DNA from: Candidatus Omnitrophota bacterium
GTDB lineage: Bacteria; Omnitrophota; Gorgyraeia; Gygaellales; Profunditerraquicolaceae
Length of the DNA stretch: 64,000 bases
Assembly: GCA_028712255.1 (NCBI GenBank)
Contig: JAQTQJ010000003.1
Location: 7,173 to 71,172 of the forward strand
Direction of reading: 5' to 3'
Shown here: positions 61,658 to 64,000 of the stretch, piece by piece
How the letters are laid out: each line of letters starts with the position of its first letter
How positions within the stretch are numbered: position 1 is the stretch's first letter
The notes under the pieces: generated by a model
Database searches by the model: none
The model's input: the letters and a program-made list of their open reading frames with translations, nothing else
Told to the model about the DNA's origin: nothing
Made by a program: the position numbers and the translations under genes

Positions 61658-64000
61658 GTGAAAAAAACCAAAGAAGAAACAAAAAATAATCCTAAGCCCG
61701 ATGATAAAACAAAGGCCTACGACGCCACCAGTATTCAGGTTTTAGAAGGCATTGAAGCGGTCAGGCGCCGCCCGGCAATGTATATTGGAGATACTTCAAC
61801 GCGTGGTTTACACCATTTAGTTTTTGAAGTTGTTGATAATAGCGTTGATGAAAGCCTGGGCGGATTTTGCGATTTGATTTCCGTAGCCATACAACCGGAT
61901 AATAGTATAACAGTTATTGATAATGGCCGCGGTATTCCGGTGGATATGCATAAAACTGAACATAAGCCTGCGGTTGAGGTTGCTTTGACCACTTTGCATG
62001 CCGGAGGGAAATTCGACCACCGTTCTTACAAAGTTTCCGGTGGTTTGCACGGGGTAGGGGTAAGTTGTGTTAATGCGCTTTCAGATTGGTTGGAGGTAGA
62101 GGTAAAACGGGATGGGAAAATTTATCATCAAAGATATGAGCGCGGTAAAACGGTTTCTAAGCTTACGGTTATTGGCAAAAGCACTTCTACTGGTACTAAA
62201 ATTACCTTTAAGCCGGATAAAACAATTTTTCCCAAAACAGAATATTCCTATGATATCCTTTCCCAGCGCCTAAGAGAGCTGGCTTTTTTAAACAGGGGAT
62301 TGAAAATAAAATTAAATGATGAGCGTTCGGATAAAGAGGCTGTTTTTGAATTTTCCGGAGGCATTGTTTCGTTCGTTGAATACCTGAACAAGAATAAAAA
62401 TCCCCTGCATAACAAAGTAGTTTATTTTGAAAAGCTTCAGGATGATGTGAATGTCGAAGTAGCCCTGCAATATAATGATGGCTATGCTGAAACTATGTTT
62501 TCCTTTGCTAATAATATTAATACTGTTGAAGGCGGGACACACTTATCGGGCTTTAAATCCGCTTTAACCCGCGGTATTAATCAATATGCCAAAGCCAAGA
62601 ATTTACTTAAAGATAATATTGCGATTACCGGCGATGATGTGCGCGAAGGTTTAACCGCAGTTATTAGTGTTAAGGTTCCTAGCCCTCAGTTTGAAGGCCA
62701 AACTAAAACTAAGTTAGGGAACTCTGAGGTTGAGGGGTTAGTTGCTTCTAGTAGCTTTGAGGCACTTTCTGGCTATTTTGAGGAGAATCCTTCGGTTGCC
62801 AACAAAATTATCGATAAAGTAATTGTAGCTTCGCGAGCCAGGGAGGCTGCGCGCAAAGCGCGTGAATTGACCCGGAGAAAAGGAGCCTTAGAAGGAGCTG
62901 GCCTTCCCGGAAAACTAGCGGATTGTTCTGAACGCGATGCGGCATTATGTGAGCTGTATATTGTGGAAGGCGACAGCGCCGGAGGATGTTTTTTTGGAGA
63001 TACAAAAGTTGCTTTAACCGACGGACGTAATGTTGCCTTGAAAGAATTATTAACCGAAGAAAAATCCGGTAAACAACATTATTGTTATACCATTAATAGA
63101 GAAGGCGAAGTTAGTATTGGAGAAATAAAAAACCCAAGAATAACCAAAAAATCAGCCGAGGTTATTAAAGTCATTCTTGATAATAATGAAGAAATTATTT
63201 GTACTCCTGATCATAAGTTTATGCTAAGGGATGGTAGTTATAAAATGGCAAAAGATTTAATTCCGCAGGATTCTTTAATGCCGCTGTATCGCAAATATTC
63301 AAAAATTGGCCACCGCATTATAATTGAAGGATATGAAATGGTGTTTGATTTAAAGTCGAATAAGTGGATTTTTACCCACTTATTATCTGATAGATATAAT
63401 TTAAATAGAAGTGTTTATTTAAAAGAACATGGGAATACAGTCCATCATAAAGATTTTAACAAATTAAATAATAATCCGGATAATTTAGTGCGTATGAATA
63501 AAGAAAAACATTTTTTATATCATACAACTGTTCTTGAAAAGACGCTGCATAGCAAAGAGGTAAAAGAAAAATCCAAAAAGGCACATCAGACGAAAGCGCA
63601 TCGAGAAAAAGTTAGAAAAATTATGAGTACGCCGAAAATGAAACAGATGTTGAGTCAAAGAGCAAAAAAACAATGGGAAAATGATGAATATAAAAACTAT
63701 ATGATGCAGAAGTGTTTAGAATTCTATTATAGCCACCCTGATTATCAAAAGAAAAATAATCAAATTTTAGACTCTAACCAAAAGAATTATTGGTCTAAAG
63801 AAGAGAATAGATTAAAACAAGCCAGTAGGGTAAAAAAATATTTTAGCATCCATCCCGAAGCCAGAGAATATTTATTTAAAAAAGCCAAAACAGAATGGTC
63901 TGATACTAAGCTCTTGGCATGGAGAAAGCATAAGACTCAGGAGCAGCGGACGCCAGAATTTAGAACAAAGAGAACAGCCGCTTATAACCAGACTTATTTA
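61658..64000 (+). CDS. gyrB: DNA gyrase subunit B, interrupted by an intein (continues beyond the window)
   Basis: GTG start directly after the dciA stop. GHKL ATPase and transducer regions run continuously to ...[14 protein letters not shown], then the intein sequence begins. Confidence 0.9.
62987..64000 (+). mobile_element. GyrB intein with an HNH-type homing endonuclease domain (C-terminal splice junction outside the window)
   Basis: Begins with Cys in [18 protein letters not shown] (Hint block A) immediately after EGDSAGG. Block B reads ICTPDHKFM. The HNH motif is [31 protein letters not shown]. Stays in frame for >330 aa without returning to GyrB sequence. Confidence 0.85.

Follow-up and report, generated by a model that had tools for sequence, protein, structure and literature searches.

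At the end of a 64,000-nucleotide stretch of DNA from Candidatus Omnitrophota bacterium (assembly GCA_028712255.1, contig JAQTQJ010000003.1, positions 7,173 to 71,172 of the forward strand; hereafter the window) the gene gyrB, which encodes DNA gyrase subunit B (GyrB), is interrupted after the motif EGDSAGG by sequence with the features of an intein and of an HNH nuclease. The locus raises the question whether an intact intein resides here that can leave the precursor by protein splicing, or whether gyrB is broken at this point, and further whether the nuclease within the insertion still serves for homing. Here we present a description of the insertion, its full-length product and its relatives. 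With a probability of roughly 90% the insertion is, judged by its residues, a complete intein of the Ssp GyrB type that is competent for splicing. It is very probably a class 1 bifunctional HNH intein, combining splicing and homing, with a length of 434 amino acids and a position between Gly443 of EGDSAGG and the serine of SAKQGRDR.

Insertion site and splicing region

The N-terminal part of the host protein (N-extein) is encoded at 61658-62986 on the forward strand, as are all parts of gyrB described below. It comprises 443 codons, starts with GTG and ends with EGDSAGG. Translation and matches to the Pfam families HATPase_c and DNA_gyraseB (1e-62 for the latter) identify the ATPase and transducer domains and the beginning of the Toprim domain (positions 1-12), while the NCBIfam equivalog models for GyrB align to residues 16-444 only. 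A first-pass annotation of the window, made from the sequence alone, had described GyrB as reading to EGDSAGG and then changing to a Cys-initiated Hint domain with blocks A and B, and both the coordinates and the strings were confirmed.

Residue Cys444 of the precursor, encoded by TGT at 62987-62989, is Cys1 of the intein. The N-terminal splicing (Hint) region extends over intein residues 1-135 (62987-63391) and is recognized by Pfam Intein_splicing with 40.6 bits (cut-off 35.8) and by NCBIfam intein_Nterm with 41.7 bits (cut-off 24.5). In the translation, Hint block A lies at 62987-63034 and block B, ICTPDHKFM, at 63197-63223, where the TxxH element is present as T-P-D-H at intein residues 73-76. 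Across 78 homologues Thr73 and His76 do not vary at all, and Cys1 is nearly invariant (at least 90%). The Hint N-terminal region is also kept in the natural mini-intein relatives P0339 and P0117. No stop codon occurs in the 337 codons of the intein frame up to the window end, whereas 18-48 stops are present in each of the remaining frames over these 1013 bases; from the base composition (32% G+C) a stop-free frame would be expected by chance with P ~6e-14.

Full-length product and predicted splicing

A protein search with all 780 residues encoded in the window retrieved the full-length product, GenBank MDD5108367.1 (P0240), a protein of 1247 amino acids from a 137,403-bp contig of Candidatus Omnitrophota. 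It equals the reading frame of the window at residues 2-780, residue 1 being the GTG start (Val in the window, Met in the record), and reads ...AAYNQTY/LDHSLAF... across the window end at 63998-64000 (here and below a slash marks a boundary). The intein goes unmentioned in the record, which is titled 'DNA topoisomerase (ATP-hydrolyzing) subunit B'. Past the window end follow a further helical segment, the sequence NYNH, block F, block G with VFVHN, and Ser+1 directly after the terminal His-Asn; GyrB picks up again at SAKQGRDR. The first-pass annotation had noted that the window ends before the C-terminal splicing blocks, and had predicted blocks F and G, an HN-S junction, a +1 serine and the resumption of GyrB. 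Each of these is present in the deposited protein, which is one open frame, free of the stop codons and of the failure to return to GyrB that the annotation had named as the contrary outcome.

The precursor thus consists of an N-extein of 443, an intein of 434 and a C-extein of 370 amino acids, with 97 residues of the intein beyond the window end. In homologues the Toprim profile continues after the intein from position 13 onward. Because the homologue P0121, with an N-extein 94% identical to that of the window, has an empty site with nothing between the two halves of GyrB, the boundaries of the intein are exactly fixed. A bacterial intein-like (BIL) domain was considered as well and is ruled out by the location in a universally conserved catalytic motif, by Ser+1 and by the exact empty site in orthologues.

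The splicing steps proposed here are deduced from the residues that the intein carries and from the known mechanism of class 1 inteins. The precursor would be translated whole, and the Hint fold would bring both junctions together. Cys1 would attack the carbonyl of Gly443 in an N-S acyl shift aided by Thr73 and His76, and the thioester would be handed to the hydroxyl of Ser+1. Cyclization of Asn434, aided by His433, would free the intein, and an O-N shift would complete a GyrB of 813 amino acids with an intact Toprim motif. The region of the EGDSAGG motif holds the catalytic glutamate of type IIA topoisomerases. Since the insertion splits this catalytic motif, unspliced gyrase should be inactive, and splicing must consequently be efficient for the cell to survive.

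Nuclease core and helical array

The insert in the Hint fold (about residues 140-395) would combine an HNH nuclease of the beta-beta-alpha-metal type with basic helices that bear Trp residues. The nuclease core, predicted as beta-beta-alpha, occupies intein residues 151-185 (63437-63541), and its motif is found at 63443-63511 with the pattern HH..N..NN...NL.......H. The motif residues H153, H154, D156, N158, N161, N162, N166, H175 and H179 are each conserved in at least 90% of the 78 homologues. Four HNH-endonuclease families of PHROG match the core (best E = 1.5e-7, another 3.6e-5), PF13392 is precomputed in six GyrB homologues (P0069, P0260, P0262, P0264, P0266 and P0288), and P0437 reaches 39.3 bits with Pfam HNH_3 over the aligned region, above the cut-off. 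No LAGLIDADG family matched the intein, even with E values of up to 10 allowed, by which a LAGLIDADG intein is ruled out; the earlier assignment of the nuclease to the HNH and not to the LAGLIDADG type is upheld.

Guided by the array, the HNH core would most likely bind and cut intein-less gyrB around GGCGGT/TCGGCAAAACAGGG, and repair from the intein-bearing copy would then copy the element in. In the DNA of the empty allele of P0121 (L002) the presumed homing site is GAAGGTGATTCTGCAGGCGGT/TCGGCAAAACAGGGGCGGGAC.

Behind the HNH core the intein continues as a helical array rich in Lys, Glu and Trp (intein residues 187-337, 63545-63997, cut by the window end), presumed to be the DNA-recognition part of the homing endonuclease. 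The array matches no Pfam family. NUMOD-type DNA-binding modules are unsupported as its identity, given that NUMOD1, NUMOD3 and NUMOD4 gave no match at E up to 10 in the window copy and seven homologues, a search in which HMMER filters may hide very weak matches. The helices tend to begin with [S/T/H]-P-[E/D]-x-[R/K] and to finish with K-x-x-[W/F/Y]. One clear internal duplication was detected with hhalign, residues 217-253 against 292-325 (probability 96%, E 2e-9). Simple tandem repeats find partial support only: this duplication, with a lag of about 74 residues, is the one significant case, and the other pairs of units match weakly.

Residue Arg321 of the intein, encoded by CGG at 63947-63949, sits in the last Trp-bearing helix of the array, at a position occupied by Trp (TGG) in all 77 aligned homologues. 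The change W321R may truly weaken the enzyme, or it may have arisen in assembly or sequencing. Over the approximately 140 columns conserved in at least 90% of the 78 homologues the window copy deviates at 3, which is the family median, and only Arg321 is unique to it.

When 1.84 billion representatives were searched with the HNH-plus-helix region, 267 clusters were obtained at E <=1e-3, among them inteins in T4-like portal proteins, in GyrA and in an AAA protein. Inteins of GyrB, GyrA, phage portal and terminase genes, a few hundred in all, share the array. Hosts of the module outside GyrB include P0407 and P0423 (T4-like portal), P0427, P0439 and P0455 (GyrA) and P0437 (AAA). Some of these non-GyrB hosts hold several inteins, with 2-4 Intein_splicing stretches per protein, and the GyrA protein P0439 carries the HNH-plus-helix intein together with a LAGLIDADG intein. 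It is conceivable, if improbable, that the array of basic helices, 150-200 residues long, represents an undescribed modular DNA-recognition domain; if so, repeat-wise reading of the target by the array could perhaps be re-engineered. A weaker idea than this one is the possibility that the invariant Cys72 beside block B, together with Cys1, makes the maturation of gyrase redox-conditional.

Predicted fold

An AlphaFold2 model of the full intein, calculated with 78 aligned sequences, has a mean predicted local distance difference test (pLDDT) score of 87. In the model residues 1-135 and 400-437 build a beta-rich core. The HNH motif is surrounded by two strands (154-157 and 170-173) and a helix (175-188; DSSP assignment, model numbering) with pLDDT of about 90, and 9-10 helices follow the HNH unit in succession up to residue 355 with pLDDT of about 85-93. 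According to this model the intein has the Hint fold. In a Foldseek comparison with the PDB at least the top 40 matches are all inteins or Hint domains, including those of NrdJ-1, DnaE, DnaB, RecA and VMA (E 1e-7 to 1e-3), with a probability of 1.0 for the NrdJ-1, DnaE, DnaB and RecA inteins. A sequence search of the PDB gave weak matches to other mini-inteins only and no solved structure of the family or of its nuclease part. In BFVD the whole model is matched by a Hint protein of Bacillus phage SP-15 (E 1e-25 over 447 columns) and by an intein of a phage terminase.

Alleles and distribution in relatives

The best matches to the N-extein, with 79-94% identity, are nearly all from Candidatus Omnitrophota, and more than 100 Omnitrophota homologues show the same uninterrupted architecture of gyrB with intein. 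Over all proteins fetched, complete inteins at the gyrB site number 130, of which 109 have 432-434 amino acids and 17 have 144-381, and 74 sites are empty. Decayed forms occur in close relatives: P0339 (90% identical) holds a mini-intein of 161 amino acids without the nuclease, and P0314 (86% identical) an intein of 223 amino acids that keeps the HNH motif; the helical array is deleted in both. Full, degenerate and empty sites in relatives with exteins 86-94% identical correspond to stages of the homing cycle. A syntenic contig from another sample (L001, approximately 80% nucleotide identity) contains the whole gene of 1247 codons followed by gyrA.

In a scan of species-representative genomes 392 stretches were found to encode relatives, and the best 80 were kept. 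Cys1 directly follows EG[DEQN]SA[GA]G in all 80 of these loci, and 67 of the 80 combine the junction HN/S with an intein length of 430-436 amino acids. Hosts with an intein at the same site belong to Omnitrophota, to many Patescibacteria, to Woese-, Pace-, Nano- and Micrarchaeota (DPANN) and to other groups. Related inteins are also held by viral contigs. The contig L015 (IMGVR_UViG_3300001687_001194, 161 kb), classed as viral, encodes at 2675-5494 on its forward strand a GyrB-like protein of 939 amino acids with an intein at the same site, EGNSAGG/CFAGNT, in which the HNH motif is kept and the helical array mostly deleted; the next open reading frame (ORF) resembles a repetitive fibre-type protein. 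A phage vehicle for the gyrB intein is possible on the basis of this contig. In P0005, an N-terminally truncated GyrB fragment from Patescibacteria, the junction reads SAGG/SFSGET, with Ser and not Cys as residue 1 of the intein.

Homologue listings contained no protein longer than about 1.65-1.75 times the query (660 residues for a query of 377, 776 for 443 and 1287 for 780), and with a domain-sized query full-length multi-domain relatives are therefore hidden and matches look partial. The idea that contigs tend to break inside the intein was dropped for this reason: the partial-only matches (best 64%, with the intein plus 40 flanking residues as query) are an apparent artefact of the length filter.

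The similarity of inteins is uncoupled from the similarity of their hosts. Between L001 and the window the exteins are 95% and the inteins 80% identical, whereas P0282 and P0284 have exteins 90-92% and inteins only 57-58% identical to those of the window; in hosts from other phyla the exteins are 48-62% and the inteins 48-59% identical. At the same site, with exteins 90-95% identical, two clearly different lineages of inteins are observed, one of 434 amino acids at 76-80% identity (P0241, P0243) and one of 432 amino acids at 57-58% (P0282, P0284), which suggests replacement or independent invasions. The G+C content of the intein is 31.6% (28% at third codon positions) versus 42.6% in the N-extein (37% at third codon positions) and 41.7% in the window, and L001 shows the same contrast. 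The uncoupled identities and the G+C contrast are consistent with an element that passes from lineage to lineage, with repeated loss and renewed gain.

Selection and alternative explanations

Ratios of non-synonymous to synonymous substitution rates (dN/dS), computed for the window versus the syntenic L001, are 0.024 for the N-extein, 0.12 for the whole intein, 0.18 for the N-terminal part of the Hint domain, 0.10 for the HNH core and 0.075 for the helical array, all of them approximate because dS is near saturation (0.6-1.4). Purifying selection acts on all parts of the intein, and constraint is no weaker on the nuclease part than on the splicing part. Besides the saturation of dS, several points weigh against a complete and bifunctional intein. 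The sequence downstream of nucleotide 64000 is known as protein only, and completeness rests on a deposited protein that matches 780 codons; an exact 52-mer from nucleotides 63939-63990 had no match in the genome and metagenome contig collections. Pfam HNH_3 gives the window copy 21-22.6 bits, under the cut-off of 24.8, and W321R could weaken the binding of DNA. No experimental demonstration of DNA cleavage by any GyrB HNH intein was found in the literature searched.

With the C-terminal junction outside the window, gyrB could be disrupted, either as a pseudogene or by insertion of a non-splicing HNH gene, and a functional gyrB could lie elsewhere in the genome. This is very unlikely in view of the deposited product, a single frame of 1247 amino acids with canonical junction residues and a complete C-extein, and in view of the 337 codons that stay open in DNA of 32% G+C. 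The same uninterrupted architecture in the Omnitrophota homologues, the conserved context dnaA-dnaN-dciA-gyrB-gyrA and the strong purifying selection on the extein speak against it as well. Equally unlikely is an assembly chimera, in which the intein of another population would have been joined to gyrB by the assembler. The source is a metagenome-assembled genome, the G+C content of the intein lies 11 points under that of the flanking extein, and many database homologues are fragments from contig ends, the latter in a list biased by the apparent length filter. However, the reading frame is kept exactly across the junction, which lies at the canonical site, the independently assembled L001 from another sample has the same structure and G+C contrast, and identities to L001 of 80% for the intein and 95% for the extein are those expected of a resident element.

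The activity of the nuclease is less certain than splicing. The element could be a splicing-competent intein in which HNH is no longer an active homing enzyme, fixed and vertically inherited, with the insert kept because a clean deletion is hard or because it aids folding. W321R at a position otherwise invariant in 77 homologues and the HNH_3 score below the cut-off are in line with this, as are the frequent degenerate and mini derivatives in close relatives, which indicate that loss of the nuclease is tolerated; moreover, many synonymous differences separate the window from L001 in the extein codons that flank the insertion, which thus give no sign of recent co-conversion. On the other hand, dN/dS of the HNH core and of the array does not exceed that of the splicing domain, all HNH motif residues are intact, the deviation of the window copy from conserved columns is no larger than the median of the family, and the uncoupled identities of inteins and exteins imply that transfer continues within the clade. 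Altogether an inactive nuclease is rather unlikely, and the HNH nuclease of the window intein is probably still an active homing enzyme.

Comparison with known inteins and nucleases

The Ssp GyrB intein of Synechocystis sp. PCC 6803 has 435 amino acids. In-frame HNH inteins were reportedly described by Dalgaard et al. in 1997, and the HNH intein of that work is said to be the Ssp GyrB intein. The window intein shares host protein and insertion point with the Ssp GyrB type (InBase gyrB allele), as seen through the cyanobacterial proteins P0004 and P0010 (EGDSAGG/CFSGDT), to whose inteins it is approximately 54% identical and colinear; identity is only about 51-56% to members from cyanobacteria, Patescibacteria and DPANN archaea. 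The C-terminal GVFVHN followed by Ser in the full-length product equals the published C-intein of Synechocystis (Ssp) GyrB (PMC2794532). In E. coli splicing is observed both for the Ssp GyrB intein and for the mini-intein derived from it, which splices efficiently without the endonuclease domain (PMC3620165), and the layout of the window intein is like that of this intein, whose endonuclease domain can be removed without loss of splicing. The window copy differs from the Ssp GyrB type member by W321R.

GyrB is a listed intein host, and inteins favour conserved motifs of topoisomerases and replication proteins (PMC4760082); the phylum Omnitrophota is not among the GyrB-intein hosts of that 2016 survey. 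The gyrB intein allele spans class and domain boundaries in Bacteria and Archaea (PMC4071816). With mycobacterial GyrA inteins of the LAGLIDADG type the window intein shares the splicing chemistry and the Hint fold, whereas its nuclease domain has an unrelated fold. In-frame HNH inteins of phages are reported in a survey of actinobacteriophages (bioRxiv 10.1101/2025.01.02.630785). They resemble the window intein in having a Hint domain with an in-frame HNH in place of LAGLIDADG, but they reside in other host genes and sites at only 24-28% identity, and the GyrB allele is chromosomal in cellular organisms, save for the viral contig L015.

Homing enzymes of the HNH type are bipartite (PMC2677866). 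The window nuclease has in common with free-standing HNH_3 or I-HmuI-type enzymes the HNH motif, the core predicted as beta-beta-alpha and an extended DNA-binding region that lies apart, C-terminal to the nuclease. In contrast to them it is embedded in a Hint fold, and its presumed DNA-binding part has no NUMOD match. The intein part of NCBIfam NF052663 (RtcB_rel_intein2) aligns to window intein residues 1-213, comprising the N-terminal Hint region and HNH, with E 1e-34. This alignment indicates that a close relative of the window intein resides in RtcB-like genes, in a different host protein and with an alignment that ends before most of the helical array.

The family to which the intein belongs has been known since the 1990s and is frequent among uncultured bacteria and archaea, and the name 'intein-containing DNA gyrase subunit B' is already in use at NCBI. 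What is mildly new is limited to the host phylum, Omnitrophota, to the lack of an intein annotation in the record and to the helical array, which is uncharacterised; general knowledge of inteins is unchanged by this ordinary selfish element. In practice the insert of 434 amino acids must be removed when gyrB phylogenies or length filters are applied to Omnitrophota, Patescibacteria and DPANN. Given empty, full and decayed sites in close relatives and an intein similarity that is uncoupled from the host, the gyrB allele could be used as a marker of gene flow among co-occurring uncultured lineages, possibly including flow through gyrB-carrying phages. In protein ligation the Ssp GyrB intein, to which the splicing domain is closely related, is already employed, and the many natural variants, including mini-inteins of 144-161 amino acids, are a ready source of alternative parts.

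Genomic context

The gene gyrB is preceded on the forward strand, in the last 5 kb of the window, by dnaA (58798-60132), dnaN (60274-61368) and an ORF of 94 amino acids (61373-61657) that resembles DciA with 23.4 bits against a cut-off of 24. Upstream, yidC (56607-58184) and a yidD-like ORF (58191-58415) lie on the reverse strand, and the forward strand is used from dnaA onward. The sign of the GC skew flips at about 58.6-60.5 kb. From the strand switch and the GC skew, the replication origin region is likely located around 58185-58797 of the window.

The first-pass annotation had also mentioned a free-standing LAGLIDADG gene in the window, and such a gene is present at 51175-51834 on the reverse strand. 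It encodes 219 amino acids with the motifs LVGLITSDGCL and LRGVIDGDGCI (Pfam LAGLIDADG_3, 35.7 bits) and is flanked by a gene for a flavoprotein (CoaC-like, 51929-52528) and by unassigned ORFs at 50575-51000 and 49423-50283. In L001 another free-standing gene, of the LAGLIDADG_1 family and with 149 amino acids, is located between parA and jag (1087-1536, reverse strand) and differs from the LAGLIDADG gene of the window. No homologue of this LAGLIDADG_1 gene occurs in the whole window, and the equivalent spot (56329-56379) measures only about 50 bp. This second homing-endonuclease gene near the origin region is thus a presence/absence polymorphism between L001 and the window.

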